From IMG/VR virus record IMGVR_UViG_2740892234_000006: a stretch of DNA of 5,037 nucleotides; one strand, written 5' to 3'. The notes below the pieces were generated by a model that was given only the letters and a program-made list of their open reading frames with translations, ran no database searches and had not been told where the DNA came from. Below, piece after piece: positions 1,514-5,037 of this stretch. Within the stretch, counting starts at the first letter, position 1. Each line of letters begins with the position of its first letter. The position numbers and the translations under genes are program-made. This DNA comes from a virus (lineage: Duplodnaviria > Heunggongvirae > Uroviricota > Caudoviricetes).

Positions 1514-1523
1514 NNNNNNNNNN
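1514..1523. other. Run of 10 N (gap or masked bases) inside a tRNA copy
   Basis: Directly visible; flanks belong to two different tRNA types. Confidence 0.95.
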
Positions 1524-1555
1524 CTGGCGGGGTTCAAGTCCCCGATGGCGGTCCA
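1524..1555 (+). tRNA. 3' portion of an Arg(UCG)-like tRNA copy (T arm and acceptor 3' strand) following the N run
   Basis: CGGGG-TTCAAGT-CCCCG-ATGGCGG-T-CCA. The acceptor 3' strand matches the Arg(UCG) tRNA at 1378-1454, not the 5' fragment before the gap, so the two fragments are from different tRNA types. Confidence 0.5.
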
Positions 1556-1568
1556 TTATCAGCATCAT

Positions 1569-1645
1569 GCGTTGTTAGCTCAGTCGGACAGAGCAATTGC
1601 CTTCTAAGCAATCGGTCACTGGTTCGAATCCAGTACAACGCGCCA
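1569..1645 (+). tRNA. tRNA-Arg, anticodon UCU (decodes rare AGA/AGG)
   Basis: 77-nt cloverleaf: acceptor GCGTTGT/ACAACGC, D arm GCTC-AGTCGGACA-GAGC, anticodon stem ATTGC/GCAAT, loop CTTCTAA, T arm ACTGG-TTCGAAT-CCAGT, discriminator G, CCA. Confidence 0.9.
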
Positions 1646-1659
1646 TATTTATTTACCAG

Positions 1660-1680
1660 GCTCGCTTTTGCGGGCTTTTT
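1660..1680 (+). terminator. Intrinsic terminator closing the tRNA cluster
   Basis: GGCTCGC-TTTT-GCGGGC hairpin (one T.G wobble) followed by T5. Confidence 0.65.
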
Positions 1681-1924
1681 ATTACAGGAAAGACACTGGA
1701 CAGTGAAATGTTAAATGCCTCACAATTCAGGCAGTTGATGATTGTCTGGTTGACGGAGAGTTGTTAAAAAAGTTTTGCATGGTGAATCCCCCTGAGCGGA
1801 GGGGCGACTGGTGACGGTATAATCTCTGATTATCAAAACGAGAATGACGAGGGTTTAGTGGCACCGGGCTGAACTCACCGGGAGGCACCCGGCACCATGC
1901 AATGGCACATAGCGCCACTCTCCA

Positions 1925-1948
1925 GCCCCTCTCCGGAGGGGCTTTCTT
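1925..1948 (+). terminator. Intrinsic terminator-like hairpin inside leader copy 1
   Basis: Perfect 7-bp stem GCCCCTC/GAGGGGC, loop TCCG, then TTTCTT. Directly followed by A6 and a second hairpin GCCCGCG...CGCGGGC (1961-1982), which reads as a terminator on the - strand. Confidence 0.5.
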
Positions 1949-2051
1949 ATGGACAAAAAAGCCCGCGCTGGGAGACGCGGGCGGCAAGGAATAAACAATG
2001 AAACGTGAAGTAATATTTCAGCTGGCGAATAATACCCTATAGTAATCACTC

Positions 2052-2073
2052 TGCGCAACTGCGCGACCTTTTT
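2052..2073 (+). terminator. Weaker terminator-like hairpin with T5 inside leader copy 1
   Basis: TGCGC-AACT-GCGCG stem then TTTTT. Homologous to the stronger copy-2 hairpin at 3979-4004. Confidence 0.4.
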
Positions 2074-2187
2074 CGAATTGCGGGCTGTAGTCTCCCTTCT
2101 GCCATTGTCCTGTAACTTCCGGACTTCAGCCCGCTCCTTATTTTACTCACAATATTATCCCGGCCGGGAGGATTCATGGCATTTAAA

Positions 2188-2197
2188 NNNNNNNNNN
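2188..2197. other. Run of 10 N cutting a DUF1737-type gene after its 4th codon
   Basis: Directly visible; downstream flank is a terminator resembling the one at 1660-1680. Confidence 0.95.
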
Positions 2198-2199
2198 TT

Positions 2200-2224
2200 G
2201 GCTCGCTTTTGCGGGCCTTTTTTT
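2200..2224 (+). terminator. Intrinsic terminator
   Basis: GGCTCGC-TTTT-GCGGGCC (7-bp stem, one wobble) then T7. Nearly the same sequence as the terminator at 1660-1680. Confidence 0.7.
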
Positions 2225-2276
2225 GTATCTGCGTTACACCATTAACTAATAAATCGAGTGCTTATCAGGAGGCTAT

Positions 2277-2501
2277 GTGAAAAAACTGATGGTGACGATT
2301 GGTCCGTTCGAAACAGAAGTTAGTTTTCGTGTTGTTCAGGGGGAGAGTGTACTTGTTGAAGATGTATTTCATGGAAAATCAACAGGTCCTTATGTAAAAG
2401 AATATCTTATCGACGCCACGGATGAAAATATTGAGGTGGTGTACGATTCCGTCAATCACCCTGATTTGATCATTAAGGCAAAATTGAAGCCACTTTATTG
2501 A
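2277..2501 (+). CDS. Hypothetical small acidic protein (74 aa), no recognised family
   Basis: ORF with GTG start 4 nt after AGGAGG (2267-2272); alternative ATG at 2289. Product MKKLMVTIGPFETEVSFRVVQGESVLVEDVFHGK... has about 12 acidic and 8 basic residues. Lies between two intrinsic terminators. Confidence 0.5.
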   Translation: MKKLMVTIGPFETEVSFRVVQGESVLVEDVFHGKSTGPYVKEYLIDATDENIEVVYDSVNHPDLIIKAKLKPLY

Positions 2502-2553
2502 TCTGACCGGGAGCAATCATAAAATATCTCTGGGTACCCACAAGGAGATAAAT

Positions 2554-2763
2554 ATGTTTGTTTCTGAAGTGTTAATGGAAGATAAGGACAACAAAGGATG
2601 GGTTAAAGGTTGGGCTGTGGTAAGAAGCTCGCCCTGGCATCTTGTTGGGGTTTTTGCGACAGAGGAAGACGCAGAAACGGAAGCAAGAAAGATGGGAGAT
2701 AAGTACGAGGTTCACTATGGCTCGCATCGAACAGGAAGTGATGATTTTGTCTGGGGGGAGTAA
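2554..2763 (+). CDS. Hypothetical small acidic Trp-rich protein (69 aa), no recognised family
   Basis: ATG preceded by strong RBS AAGGAG (2542-2547, 6-nt spacing). Product MFVSEVLMEDKDNKGWVKGWAVVRSSPWHLVGVFATEEDAETEARKMGDKYEVHYGSHRTGSDDFVWGE has about 14 acidic and 8 basic residues and 4 Trp. Followed by a terminator at 2798-2820. Confidence 0.6.
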   Translation: MFVSEVLMEDKDNKGWVKGWAVVRSSPWHLVGVFATEEDAETEARKMGDKYEVHYGSHRTGSDDFVWGE

Positions 2764-2797
2764 CAGTCGTTTAACCCCAGAATAATCCCGTAACTGA

Positions 2798-2820
2798 GGT
2801 CGCTATTGGCGGCCTTTTTT
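2798..2820 (+). terminator. Intrinsic terminator
   Basis: GGTCGC-TATTG-GCGGCC (6-bp stem, one wobble) then T6. Followed by GTATCCGCG, similar to the GTATCTGCG linker after the terminator at 2200-2224. Confidence 0.65.
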
Positions 2821-2952
2821 GTATCCGCGCCACGCCCGGCGCATATCAACCACAGAGCCTTTCGGGGGTGAGCTTACGGAGTGGTCAGTGTGACTTTCTC
2901 TGTGGGCAGATCGCTCCCGGGCGTTGGCTCACCCACCCAAAGGAACGTCACG

Positions 2953-3111
2953 ATGTTTGGTATTTTTGGTAAAAAAAGCCCGCAGAGCGGCAACGGAAAT
3001 TAAAAAGTTTGAAAAACGCGATCTGGCACAGGTGGTGATTAACGCCGCCTACCTGGTGGCCTATGCAGATGGTGAATGTGAGGCTTCCTAGAAAGCGAAG
3101 ATCGAACAGGT
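2953..3111 (+). pseudogene. Degenerate partial copy of the TerB-like gene (start codon present, then frameshift and in-frame TAG)
   Basis: ATG 2953 with RBS AAAGGAA gives MFGIFGKKSPQSGNGN* (stop 3001-3003). The following ~120 nt are ~90% identical to 3122-3243 but in a different frame, consistent with an extra A in the A7 run at 2971-2977, and carry TCC TAG (3086-3091) where the downstream copy has TCA GAG. Could also reflect low-quality contig-end sequence. Confidence 0.45.
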
Positions 3112-3121
3112 NNNNNNNNNN
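3112..3121. other. Run of 10 N between two partial copies of the TerB-like gene
   Basis: Directly visible. Confidence 0.95.
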
Positions 3122-3136
3122 GCCCGCCGAGCGGCA

Positions 3137-3535
3137 GTGGAAATTAAAAAGTTTGAGAAACGTGATCTGGCACAGGCGGTTATTAATGCTGCCTATCTGG
3201 TGGCCTATGCAGATGGTGAATGTGAGGCTTCAGAGAAAGCGAAGATCGAGCAGATCTTGCGTAACCAGCCTGCGTTGTCCGCGTTTACGTCAGAAATTAA
3301 TGCGATTAGCGCAACCATTATCGGTCAGCTGGATACGAACTTTAAAATTGGTCGTCGAGCGGCATTGCGTGAAATTGAAGATGTGAAACACGATACGCGT
3401 GAAGCGGAAGATGTGCTGGATGTGGCGGTGGCCATTGCGGAGGCAGACGGCGAAATTGAGCCGGAAGAGCGCAAGGTGCTGGAAGAGATTGCCGGTGTTC
3501 TGGGTCTTCGTCTGGAGAATTACCTGTTACGGTAA
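3137..3535 (+). CDS. TerB-like (tellurite-resistance TerB family) acidic protein; 5' end uncertain because the frame is open back to the N run at 3121
   Basis: ORF ...EIKKFEKRDLAQAVINAAYLVAYADGECEASEKAKIEQIL...AVAIAEADGEIEPEERKVLEEIAGVLGL... contains two A-x-ADGE-x-E repeats typical of TerB-family domains, as recalled. The true N-terminus is probably MFGIFGKK..., as in the upstream degenerate copy. Confidence 0.6.
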   Translation: MEIKKFEKRDLAQAVINAAYLVAYADGECEASEKAKIEQILRNQPALSAFTSEINAISATIIGQLDTNFKIGRRAALREIEDVKHDTREAEDVLDVAVAIAEADGEIEPEERKVLEEIAGVLGLRLENYLLR

Positions 3536-3860
3536 AACTGCGCCTGACTGTGGCTGCACTCCTGCTGTTTCTGGTGGTGATGGTGGATTTCACCAGCAGA
3601 ATCATGTCGGTGCTGGCGGATGGGGTGCTGGTCTGCGGCATTATGGTATTGCTGTGGCCGGTGATAAAAAGAAACAGCCTGCATAATGCTTGATTTTTTT
3701 ATTTGCTGTTTATTAAAAATACTACTGCATGGTGAATCCCCCTGTGCGGTGGGGCAATCAGCAAGAAGGAATATGGGGTAATCGCGGATTCAGGTGCTGA
3801 TACTGAATTCACCGGGAGGCACCCGGCACCATGCAAGAAAAAGAATGTGCATGCAAACAT

Positions 3861-3886
3861 GCCCCTCTCCGGAGGGGCATTTTTTA
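3861..3886 (+). terminator. Intrinsic terminator-like hairpin inside leader copy 2
   Basis: GCCCCTC-TCCG-GAGGGGC then ATTTTTT. Followed by A6 and hairpin GCCCGAA-TGGG-TTCGGGC (3899-3916), which reads as a terminator on the - strand. Confidence 0.55.
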
Positions 3887-3978
3887 TGGGTAAAAAATGC
3901 CCGAATGGGTTCGGGCAATAGCATGAGATACTGATATTGTTGTGTTGTTATCGTGTGGATTTTAACCAGGGTTTATCA

Positions 3979-4004
3979 GGCTGCGCAACTGCGTGGCCTT
4001 TTTT
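3979..4004 (+). terminator. Intrinsic terminator inside leader copy 2
   Basis: GGCTGCGC-AACT-GCGTGGCC (8-bp stem with two G.U wobbles) then T6. Confidence 0.6.
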
Positions 4005-4100
4005 CATTTCTTGGGCTGTAGTCCCCGTGTGTCATTCAGGCTTCCGGACTACAGCCCACTCCATATCTGATTTAATACACTATCCCGGCCGGGAGGAATA

Positions 4101-4155
4101 ATGACATTTAAACATTATGATGTTGTCAGGGCGGCGTCGCCGTCAGACCTTGCGG
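4101..4155 (+). CDS. 5' fragment of a DUF1737-type gene (nanS-p paralogue), cut after 18 codons by the N run
   Basis: RBS GGGAGGA then ATG; MTFKHYDVVRAASPSDLA... matches the N-terminus of the downstream gene (MSIKHYDVIRAASPSDLAEK...). Confidence 0.5.
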
Positions 4156-4165
4156 NNNNNNNNNN
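4156..4165. other. Run of 10 N cutting a DUF1737-type gene after 18 codons
   Basis: Directly visible; the last 29 nt before the gap are identical to 4347-4375 in the downstream nanS-p gene. Confidence 0.95.
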
Positions 4166-4208
4166 ATTTCTGTTTTTCTCAAACTATCATCGTTATCCCT
4201 TTATTTTC

Positions 4209-4235
4209 GGCTGCGCATGGCGCGGCCTTTTTTTT
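4209..4235 (+). terminator. Intrinsic terminator
   Basis: GGCTGCGC-ATG-GCGCGGCC (8-bp stem, one wobble) then T8. Confidence 0.65.
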
Positions 4236-4321
4236 ACGACCAGCCACTGGCAGATGGTCATCCTGTGATTTGATTCCGCTTCCGGCTTTTTAACTCTGTT
4301 CCTCTACACGGGAGAAATTCG

Positions 4322-5037
4322 ATGTCGATTAAACATTACGATGTTATCAGGGCGGCGTCGCCGTCAGACCTTGCGGAAAAGCTGACACACAAACTGAAAG
4401 AGGGCTGGCAGCCATACGGCGGACCGGTTGCCATTACGCCGTACACACTGATGCAGGCGGTGGCTATTGAAGGAGAGCCACAGGTCGGCCCTTCATCTGA
4501 GCCGGATTGGTACTACGTCATCGTACTGGCCGGGCAGTCCAATGCCATGGCTTACGGTGAAGGGCTTCCGCTGCCGGATTCATACGATGCTCCGGATCCG
4601 CGCATTAAACAGCTGGCGCGCCGCAGTACAGTGACGCCGGGCGGGGCTGTCTGCAGATATAACGATATTATTCCGGCTGACCACTGTCTGCATGATGTGC
4701 AGGATATGAGTACGCTGAATCATCCGAGGGCTGACCTGAGCAAAGGGCAGTACGGCTGTGTCGGCCAGGGTTTACATATTGCCAAAAAACTGCTCCCGTA
4801 TATCCCGAATAACGCGGGGATCCTGCTGGTACCATGCTGTCGTGGTGGTTCGGCATTTACCCAGGGCGCGGAGGGGACATTCAGCGAGTCCACGGGGGCC
4901 AGTCAGGATTCGGCACGCTGGGGAGTGGGCAAGCCGTTATATCAGGATCTGATTTCCCGCACAAAAGCGGCATTGCAGAAAAATCCCAAAAACGTTCTGC
5001 TGGCCGTCTGCTGGATGCAGGGTGAGTTTGACATGAG
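4322..5037 (+). CDS. nanS-p: Prophage sialate O-acetylesterase, NanS-p-like (N-terminal DUF1737 domain plus SASA esterase domain); 3' end beyond the window
   Basis: ATG 4322 with RBS GGGAGA. Frame 2 stays open to the window end, which is why it is absent from the ORF track. N-terminus MSIKHYDVIRAASPSDLAEKLTHKLKEGWQPYGGPVAITPYTLMQAVAIEGE is DUF1737-like; the GQSN motif (4532-4543, ...VLAGQSNAMAYGEG...) is the catalytic-serine signature of SASA-family esterases. This gene class sits downstream of stx2 in Stx phages (recall). Confidence 0.8.
   Translation, partial: MSIKHYDVIRAASPSDLAEKLTHKLKEGWQPYGGPVAITPYTLMQAVAIEGEPQVGPSSEPDWYYVIVLAGQSNAMAYGEGLPLPDSYDAPDPRIKQLARRSTVTPGGAVCRYNDIIPADHCLHDVQDMSTLNHPRADLSKGQYGCVGQGLHIAKKLLPYIPNNAGILLVPCCRGGSAFTQGAEGTFSESTGASQDSARWGVGKPLYQDLISRTKAALQKNPKNVLLAVCWMQGEFDM

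Follow-up and report, generated by a model that had tools for sequence, protein, structure and literature searches.

Two very probable alleles of a described convergent small-RNA cassette of lambda-like Escherichia coli prophages, set side by side by a draft scaffold

Tree et al. (2014) described, in E. coli prophages, a convergent pair of small RNAs (sRNAs) that has the moron site on one side and the nanS-p esterase gene on the other. One of these RNAs, AgvB, mimics the targets of GcvB and titrates it, an antagonism that has been shown in E. coli O157 Sakai (Tree et al. 2014). On the opposite strand, the Sakai homologues of STnc100, namely EcOnc05, EcOnc06 and EcOnc27, are Hfq-bound RNAs of 177-247 nt, detected by Hfq CRAC and Northern blotting in EHEC and also found in STEC vesicles. 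In EPEC, RIL-seq has provided a further sRNA candidate, E2348C_1409.E2348C_1408.IGR, which is 182 nt long and starts with AGCGGGCTGAAGTCCGG. STnc100, AgvB and the EcOnc08/21/42 RNAs are already catalogued, even if the sRNA genes of the cassette are unannotated in most phage and genome records.

The DNA analysed here (the window) is a stretch of 5,037 nucleotides from a Caudoviricetes record (IMG/VR IMGVR_UViG_2740892234_000006), in which NinG, NinH, Q, tRNAs, TerB and DUF3927 are followed by a DUF1737 plus SASA gene. An earlier note on this DNA had proposed a duplicated, structured leader of about 400 bases, a candidate sRNA or cis-regulatory module upstream of DUF1737-type gene starts. Two homologous collinear stretches are indeed present at about 1749-2187 and 3701-4112, with 77% column identity, and both precede DUF1737-type starts; the full ORF, which begins at 4322, contains DUF1737 and SASA (Pfam). 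The family membership, anatomy, conservation and covariation established below indicate that each copy is very probably an allele of the known convergent cassette of the lambda-like E. coli prophage late operon, and not a new candidate module.

The duplication itself has a different origin from the one first assumed, which was a duplication within one locus. The window consists of five contigs, with N-run joints at 1514-1524, 2188-2198, 3112-3121 and 4156-4165. At three junctions the following contig restarts within a near-duplicate of the sequence just before (repeat families D1, D2 and D4; in D4, the DUF1737 start at 4084..4155 is 91% identical to 4322-4376). After the 2188-2198 gap, the next contig begins again some 540 bases earlier, with the post-tRNA terminator (D6), and a chimeric tRNA at 1468-1555 is the product of one contig junction. 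In complete genomes, contig 1525-2187 is found with 99.1% identity in the order two tRNA-Arg, module, esterase, while contigs 2199-4155 follow the order tRNAs, two ORFs, TerB, DUF3927, one module, esterase. Each allele sits in a different prophage late region of complete E. coli genomes, and the arrangement of the window occurs in none of the 5,426 that were checked. A true 2-kb duplication is thus rejected: the two copies are alleles of two different prophages, joined by a draft-assembly scaffold, and they lie 2 kb apart because short repeat-derived contigs have been strung together. The original observation is real but ordinary, as it reflects two versions of a described cassette placed next to each other. 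Genuine tandem copies of STnc100 do occur in other phage contigs, with spacings of 484 nt and about 253 nt.

On the + strand, both copies carry an sRNA gene of the STnc100 family (Rfam RF02076, curated gathering score 47 bits). The gene of copy 1 (1749..1954), whose terminator stem at 1924-1943 is followed by a T-rich tail, scores 158.3 bits (E 1.3e-36), and that of copy 2 (3701..3891), with a terminator stem of 9 pairs at 3859-3880, scores 139.4 bits (E 9e-32); both align with the whole model (1-206 of 206). Both copies have the location downstream of the moron site, the terminator and the convergent partner in common with STnc100 and EcOnc05/06/27, and nothing essential differs from the family; the STnc100 body is also matched by the EcOnc05, EcOnc06 and EcOnc27 Northern probes in reverse complement. 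What separates the two window copies is the sequence of the variable central hairpins and of the linker, a difference of the kind seen among family members. Among 55 distinct sequences, covariation is seen at pairs 93-107 (AU/GC/UA/GU), 89-111 (GC/AU) and 10-132 (GC/GU/AU), as well as at the terminator pair 172-185 (CG/UA), and the closing helix reads CAUGGUG/CACCAUG, GUGGUG/CACCAC or UGUGAUG/CAUCACA in distant phage copies.

An unusually invariant multi-helix core of this kind (GCAUGGUGAAUCCCCC...CACCGGGAGGCACCCGGCACCAUGC), with covarying helices, might also be expected of a cis attenuator, a riboswitch-like leader of the late genes from which the short RNA would arise as a terminated by-product. 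In agreement with this, STnc100 is oriented as the late operon and always has a terminator after it. However, Hfq binds and stabilises the RNA in EHEC, RIL-seq in EPEC has found partners for the related PasD, and the next ORF of type I modules is separated from STnc100 by a convergent gene and a second terminator. Moreover, environmental phage contigs hold tandem arrays of self-contained STnc100 units, each with its own terminator and placed upstream of tRNA genes, unlike a leader. We regard attenuation as improbable, and most of the roughly 400 bases that had been labelled leader or cis-regulatory are independent sRNA genes.

The - strand gene of copy 2 is AgvB (3892..3953; Rfam RF02702; EcOnc01a/b in Tree et al. 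2014), with its terminator stem at 3917-3898. It scores 96.5 bits against a gathering score of 56 and is consensus-identical at 62/62 positions, and the published 60-nt AgvB is matched exactly at 3953-3894, with the 5' end at 3953. The GcvB R1 target mimic CACAACA lies in the 5' variable region, the conserved 3' 42 nt and the terminator are present, and the gene is convergent with the STnc100-type gene, between the moron site and the nanS-p-type ORF, as in Tree et al. (2014). Sequence, mimic, terminator and relative position being identical, no difference from published AgvB was detected in copy 2, and an anti-sRNA of the kind that the earlier note mentioned for prophages of pathogenic E. coli, near this position, is here at 3953-3892. 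Relative to the AgvB start mapped by 5'-RACE (Tree et al. 2014), the promoter is placed at 3959..3988 on the - strand, with a -35 box TTGCGC (3988-3983), an 18-nt spacer and a -10 box TAAAAT (3964-3959). AsxR (RF02703; EcOnc03) has the cassette position and the conserved 3' 42 nt in common with AgvB, but in the window element the 5' variable region is that of AgvB; the AsxR model reaches 43 bits at 3894-3942, below its gathering score of 63, and has no match at the corresponding position of copy 1.

In copy 1 the - strand encodes an EcOnc08-type sRNA segment (1955..2027), convergent with STnc100, with a terminator stem at 1982-1961 (8 pairs, 7 of them G-C) and a T-run to 1955. This strand is identical to the Hfq-CRAC peak of Sakai Sp4 EcOnc08 at 69/74 positions (93%), and segment 2034-2119 to EcOnc21, also from Sakai Sp4, at 77/86 (90%). 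A probable long RNA of the EcOnc08/21/42 type would span 1955..2135, its 5' end carrying an inverted repeat. Indeed, the EPEC locus is 95% identical to window 1868-2186 over 320 bases, the start of the 182-nt EPEC RNA corresponds, by manual comparison, to about 2135, and the terminator is the same as that of the copy 1 RNA. EcOnc08/21/42 and the EPEC candidate share with copy 1 both this terminator and the location antisense to the esterase leader; RNAs of this type are without an Rfam family. By analogy with the mapped AgvB 5' end in the paralogous copy, we infer a promoter for a short RNA at 2029..2058 (-35 TTGCGC at 2058-2053, 18-nt spacer, -10 TATTAT at 2034-2029). In addition, a consensus scan finds a promoter-like site, ATGCCA-17-GATAAT, at 2154..2182 on the - strand, which shares bases with the start codon of the esterase gene and with the stretch immediately preceding the Shine-Dalgarno (SD) sequence; its predicted start near 2147 would fit the 5' end of the 182-nt EPEC RNA. 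The sizes disagree: a putative form starting from the inferred promoter would have ~68 nt, the EPEC RNA has 182 nt, and the Sakai Northern shows ~271 nt.

Structured, terminated small RNAs are thus encoded on both strands, and the back-to-back hairpins of the earlier note are terminators: region 1640-4340 holds 13 terminator-like sites, as compared with 2.7 expected from shuffles. The earlier note had further read three hairpins as kept by compensatory changes. All three are found where it placed them and covariation does appear in larger alignments, for STnc100 and for the inverted repeat, but the three examples are unequal in weight. In particular, the hairpins next to the A-run (GCCCGCG/CGCGGGC at 1961-1982, GCCCGAA/TTCGGGC at 3899-3916) are the terminators of two non-identical sRNA genes and not one hairpin undergoing compensation.

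Another example belongs to a hairpin, H1. Copy 1 has it in a weak form, TGCGCAACTGCGCG, with 5 pairs and a T-run behind it (2052..2075, +), a terminator-like site very similar to the one that ends type II STnc100 relatives, GGCTGCGCATGGCGCGGCC+T8. In copy 2 it is a terminator hairpin, AGGCTGCGCAACTGCGTGGCCT, followed by T6 (3978..4005, +), with 9 pairs, 6 of them G-C, in the scan. Across 52 leaders, 83% of H1 cells are paired. The pair G2053-C2064 of copy 1 does face G3983.T3994 in copy 2, a G-C to G.U change. In 83/83 modules the invariant CTGCGCAACTG hairpin, a + strand terminator, has within it the -35 box of the - strand gene, and the promoter geometry (TTGCGC, 18 nt, TAAAAT or TATTAT) is likewise present in all 83. 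The CTGCGCAACTGCG block is conserved at least partly because it holds this -35 box. PasA, considered as a possible + strand RNA ending at H1, was rejected: it is a - strand RNA that is homologous to EcOnc51/52 and has its place between the genes for the esterase and the holin.

Between H1 and the esterase gene lies an inverted repeat, which in copy 1 spans 2080..2134 (arms 2080-2093 and 2121-2134) and in copy 2 spans 4012..4058 (arms 4012-4024 and 4046-4058, a perfect 13 bp, folding at -28.0 on the + strand and -25.2 on the -). The remaining quoted example, C2081-G2133 against T4012-A4058, is real, but it is an end pair that appears as C.A in close relatives, an outcome of the mosaic joining of an AgvB-class cassette to either inverted-repeat type. 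The sRNA-gene model does not explain this hairpin of the nanS-p leader, which is the only part without a published description. It is followed by a mini-hairpin that would sequester the SD sequence, CCCGGCCGGG in copy 1 (2159..2187, +; SD GGGAGGA 2166-2172, DUF1737 gene ATG 2176, first 4 codons, contig end), with its counterpart in copy 2 (4084..4155, +; SD GGGAGGA 4091-4097, ATG 4101, first 18 codons, contig end). In this mini-hairpin RNAalifold pairs 126-137, and variants alter mainly the loop. A search for cis-regulatory families gave no Rfam match at E <= 1 in 1985-2175 or 3954-4055, and a weak GcvB match at 4056-4234 (overlapping 4056-4100) is an artefact: an N-run lies within it, and intact homologues do not show it. 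As a canonical terminator the inverted repeat is rejected, its loop being too large and most types being without an adjacent T-run; no convincing + strand promoter directly upstream of it was found by consensus scan and inspection.

The 3' half of each copy (2045-2178, 3975-4103) may instead be a cis-acting leader of the esterase/lysis mRNA, in which the inverted repeat would control processing (e.g., by RNase III), stability or translation and the sRNA genes would be mere neighbours. The inverted repeat persists across some 7 sequence types, and 9 pairs are changed on both sides versus 3.7 in shuffles (0/500), a control that ignores the relatedness of the sequences, with 0-3 in slid controls. 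It shows 78 G.U cells against 9 A.C cells, RNAalifold gives -15.9 on the + strand and 0 on the -, and the folding energies of the divergent types are -20 to -23 kcal/mol for the + strand and only -2.5 to -12 for the -. The G.U pattern favours a + strand RNA, the esterase leader, over the documented - strand RNA, and the loop-centred variants of the SD hairpin point in the same direction. However, the independent lineages are few, a hand count of column events narrows the contrast to roughly 11 G.U against 5 A.C, and in the commonest type the two strands do not differ in how well they fold. Furthermore, this hairpin is exactly where a documented - strand RNA begins, the leaders of other nanS-p-like genes are AT-rich and unrelated, and SD accessibility is unremarkable (0.31-0.53 in single-sequence folds). 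A cis-acting leader is thus a tentative reading, possible and not likely. Slightly more doubtful is the proposal that the 47-55-nt inverted repeat is an undescribed hairpin of the late-mRNA strand, with H1 acting both as + strand terminator and as -35/upstream region.

The same conserved blocks could in principle act as DNA, as linkers for recombination between mosaic phage modules, as palindromes bound by protein or as cruciforms. Mosaic structure is plain in the alignment, as the two inverted-repeat types joined to AgvB-class cassettes illustrate, and variable segments are flanked by invariant blocks (the STnc100 core, TGCGCAACTG, the SD). On the other hand, the helices survive changes on both sides and include G.U pairs, which are not symmetrical in DNA, and the homologues have documented transcripts, so that we hold DNA-level function to be very improbable. 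Coding is rejected, small proteins having next to no probability: mechanical ORFs of 30-86 aa overlap both copies, but they are not common to the two, the alignment gaps of 15, 7, 5, 2 and 1 nt are not confined to multiples of three, and the conserved blocks are hairpins and terminators.

A third, different leader stands at 4166..4321 on the + strand, where the 3' end of an EcOnc04-type STnc100 relative (4166-4236) comes first and is followed by the stretch leading into the full-length esterase gene (ATG 4322). Only about the last 70 nt of this RNA are present, as the contig starts there; they include the terminator at 4209-4227 plus T8, and at 4166-4182 they match the EcOnc04 Northern probe in reverse complement. 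The EcOnc04 type is a sub-type of the group of EcOnc13, known in EPEC as PasD1/PasD2. RNAs of this type terminate with GGCTGCGCATGGCGCGGCC+T8 immediately before the esterase gene and have no convergent partner. EcOnc13/PasD proper scores 38-41 bits, below the STnc100 threshold, whereas the EcOnc04-like form, represented by an intact homologue, reaches 98 bits. A DUF1737-domain search returned only six Escherichia-type loci and so added little diversity.

Taken as the described cassette, each copy would run from the moron site, with its tRNAs, stx or other cargo, to the nanS-p-type esterase gene. An STnc100-family sRNA with its own intrinsic terminator occupies the + strand, directly followed by the back-to-back terminator of a second small RNA on the - strand, AgvB in copy 2 and an EcOnc08/21/42-type Hfq-binding RNA in copy 1; H1, the 13-14 bp inverted repeat, the small SD-sequestering hairpin and the esterase gene complete the array. 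In the lysogen, the sRNAs would be transcribed from their own promoters and bound by Hfq, while the tandem + strand terminators, H1 included, may stop sRNA transcription before it reaches the esterase and lysis genes; once the prophage is induced, Q-modified polymerase would read through the whole cassette. Expression, Hfq binding and AgvB function are here taken from the literature on homologues, whose small transcripts are documented in EHEC (Hfq CRAC, Northern) and in EPEC (RIL-seq).

Beyond correct annotation, the finding matters little, and the remaining biology, namely the role of the esterase-leader hairpin and the dual terminator/promoter use of H1, is modest. Were the tentative reading of the hairpin true, the inverted repeat would be a processing, stability or translation element of the nanS-p/lysis transcript, and its complement the 5' end of an antisense EcOnc08/21-type RNA, making one 130-bp segment functional on both strands and coupling late-operon read-through to anti-sRNA shut-off. 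A practical lesson is that multi-prophage genomes assembled as draft scaffolds can fake local duplications. As for the strain, the window sequence shows that it has AgvB, together with two or three genes of the STnc100 family and an RNA of the EcOnc08 type, and such prophage regulators can rewire core sRNA networks in pathogenic E. coli, for example that of GcvB and amino-acid uptake.

Each of the two structured leaders, copy 1 (~1749-2187) and copy 2 (~3701-4112), begins with a + strand sRNA gene of the STnc100 family. Rfam STnc100 was matched at 1749-1954 with 158 bits and at 3701-3891 with 139 bits (gathering score 47). The Northern probes that Tree et al. used for EcOnc05, EcOnc06 and EcOnc27 are, in reverse complement, found within the STnc100 body. 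STnc100-type RNAs of near-identical sequence are abundant and Hfq-bound in lysogens (Tree et al.). The core (1777-1900, 3727-3834) is a multi-way junction in which an 8-bp closing helix is joined by a 2-nt linker to a first hairpin, while a 5-bp hairpin directly abuts the 3' strand of the closing helix. This layout, beside phage tRNA genes, is loosely cloverleaf-like; tRNA detectors made no call on the core in either copy. Among 55 distinct sequences several helices are kept through changes on both sides, and in distant copies the closing helix varies compensatorily (GUGGUG/CACCAC, UGUGAUG/CAUCACA). In environmental viral contigs (comparison loci L205:380-1030, L213, L232:4436-4994 and L201), 2-4 STnc100-like units follow one another in tandem, repeating every ~253 nt, each unit having its own terminator; the L205 array adjoins a tRNA gene.

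A second sRNA gene converges on the first from the - strand. In copy 2 it is AgvB (3953-3892, 96.5 bits), identical to the Rfam consensus; it also matches the 60-nt sequence in the literature without a difference. Tree et al. give data from Hfq CRAC and Northern blots, and they show that AgvB antagonises GcvB; the RNA of identical sequence is abundant and Hfq-bound in lysogens, and it derepresses GcvB targets. The - strand of copy 1 matched no Rfam family; it is identical at 69 of 74 positions to the Sakai Sp4 peak EcOnc08 and, further upstream, at 77 of 86 to EcOnc21. EcOnc08/21/42 are listed as one RNA of ~271 nt (Tree et al.), and a homologous 182-nt RIL-seq sRNA candidate is known from EPEC (Pearl Mizrahi et al. 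2021, PMC8550237, Table S6), whose 5' end, AGCGGGCTGAAGTCC..., maps to ~2135 in the window. A promoter-like site on the - strand (ATGCCA-17-GATAAT, 2182-2154) overlaps the esterase start codon, being built from the reverse complement of that codon and of the sequence just upstream of the SD. Transcription from it would begin near 2147 and yield an RNA antisense to the esterase leader. Such a start agrees with the 5' end of the 182-nt EPEC RNA; in that case the EPEC RNA, too, would run antisense to that leader.

The window is the late-regulatory region of a lambda-like E. coli prophage. NinG, NinH and the Q antiterminator (419-853) are followed by two terminators, a methylase fragment and tRNA genes, then by two small ORFs, a TerB-family gene, a DUF3927 gene and, from 4322, a DUF1737+SASA esterase of the nanS-p type. 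The two strong terminator hairpins downstream of Q lie at 855-930 (gtcgaacccgccgatgcgcgggttttttt) and 1100-1135 (gccagcctcccccagtggctggctttttt), the former probably ending the short PR' transcript. The two small moron ORFs (2277-2501, 74 aa; 2554-2763, 69 aa) are bracketed by terminators at 2200-2217 and 2796-2816; no significant Pfam family was found for either, and complete genomes have both as conserved hypothetical proteins. Four N-runs interrupt the window (1514-1524, 2188-2198, 3112-3121, 4156-4165). Beyond three of the gaps the sequence resumes within a near-duplicate of what immediately precedes the gap (repeat families D1, D2 and D4), and beyond the one at 2188-2198 it resumes ~540 bases back, at the post-tRNA terminator (repeat D6). 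At the first junction two tRNA-Arg genes are fused, one contributing its 5' half and the other its 3' half; ARAGORN calls the resulting chimera, which spans the gap, as one 88-nt 'tRNA-Arg' (1468-1555). The N-runs, the restarts and the chimeric tRNA thus show that the window consists of five short contigs strung together.

This bears on the duplicated leader described in the earlier note. The two stretches do align, with 77% column identity, and every hairpin quoted for them sits where it was placed. The copies are, however, not really 2 kb apart, as complete genomes carry one module (STnc100-family gene, convergent sRNA gene and esterase leader) per arrangement. In particular, the contig at 1525-2187 is found at 99.1% identity in complete genomes, e.g., O111:H- 11128, in the order tRNA-Arg x2, module, esterase, and the contigs at 2199-4155 correspond in strains CD45 and UTME-9 to tRNAs, two ORFs, TerB, DUF3927, one module, esterase and holin. 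A 2.75-kb query aligned over a span of only ~1.85 kb in the records that matched best, which means that both copies had hit one single module. Contig order and short match span together show the duplication to be a scaffolding artefact that set alleles from different prophages side by side; comparing the copies as paralogues stays valid. Among N-free contigs, two STnc100 genes lie 484 nt apart upstream of one esterase gene (L141:780-1720; ~11 other loci, including L145, L150, L157, L096 and L114, have two-copy arrangements) or 2.1-2.4 kb apart; the copies in L147 are separated by a long reverse-strand ORF resembling an inserted mobile element. The sRNA gene is thus duplicated locally in nature, but not in this window.

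Modules were gathered from IMG/VR by three exact-motif scans, from complete genomes and from six Escherichia loci. This gave 81 distinct modules of 507 nt, or 83 when the two window copies are counted. They are clearly mosaic and group at 5% distance into 32 clusters, with - strand cassettes of an AgvB/AsxR/EcOnc03 class, an EcOnc08 class and a third, minor one. In all 83, the - strand has TTGCGC separated by 18 nt from a second box, TAAAAT in 40 modules and TATTAT in 43; this pair can be read as a promoter since in copy 2 the -10 box lies 5 nt upstream of the 5'-RACE-mapped AgvB start. On the + strand, the hairpin H1, which is the CTGCGCAACTGCG hairpin of the earlier note, precedes a T-run, with 9 pairs in copy 2 (3978-3999) and 5 in copy 1 (2052-2065). 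Terminator-like sites number 13 in 1640-4340, against 2.7 expected from shuffles. H1 and its T-run are nearly identical to the terminator, GGCTGCGCATGGCGCGGCC+T8, of the type II sRNAs, i.e., STnc100 relatives directly upstream of the esterase. This likeness suggests that an ancestral terminator may have gained a terminator-plus-anti-sRNA cassette on its upstream side, or else that a deletion may have given rise to type II. The third leader (4166-4321) has this strong terminator at 4209-4227 and no convergent partner; at the start of the last contig (4166-4236) stands the 3' end of an STnc100 relative of the EcOnc04 type, which belongs as a sub-type to the PasD/EcOnc13 group. A weak Rfam GcvB match at 4056-4234 (28 bits, E 0.0024) crosses an N-run and is missing from intact homologous loci, and was thus rejected as a concatenation artefact. 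Many nanS-p-like genes, e.g., in E. albertii (L126, L128, L132, L133 and ~40 other loci), have an unrelated AT-rich leader (...TTTTTCAGATGGTGGAAAGAACCATG) without H1, inverted repeat or adjacent anti-sRNA.

Retained pairing with changed sequence, which the earlier note took as a sign of selection on structure, holds in larger alignments (55 STnc100 and 52 leader sequences). The three examples in that note do not count equally. The hairpins beside the A-run terminate two different genes, so their "compensation" is not one hairpin evolving. The C-G to T-A change at the end of the inverted repeat (2080-2134, 4012-4058) is seen between the copies, but the pair is C.A in close recombinant relatives. 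In the CTGCGCAACTGCG hairpin, whose invariant part is the -35 box of the putative - strand promoter, the change is from G-C to G.U. Among the 52 distinct leader sequences 86.8% of cells are paired, and 9 pairs are changed on both sides, against 3.7 in shuffles (0/500) and 0-3 in slid controls; a smaller set gave the same picture. The signal lies mostly within the inverted repeat, whose outer helix is 95% paired. Three observations favour a hairpin on the + strand: 78 G.U cells against 9 A.C cells, far better folding of divergent types on +, and an RNAalifold consensus on + only (-15.9 vs 0). The evidence for an RNA hairpin on the late-mRNA strand is suggestive, since the signal comes from only ~7 lineages and a - strand RNA already on record starts at this hairpin.

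Collectively, catalogued sRNAs cover the whole finding, because copies 1 and 2 and the third leader all relate to them. The elements are already known and named, and their arrangement has been in the literature since 2014 and was taken up again in 2021 and 2026; most phage records leave the sRNA region unannotated. The only undescribed items, both minor, are the conserved esterase-leader hairpin and the shared terminator/promoter element. Transcription of each sRNA in the lysogen would start at a promoter of its own and end at its own terminator, with H1 as a second barrier that may shield the esterase and lysis genes from read-through. After induction, Q-modified polymerase would read through and run into the - strand promoter.
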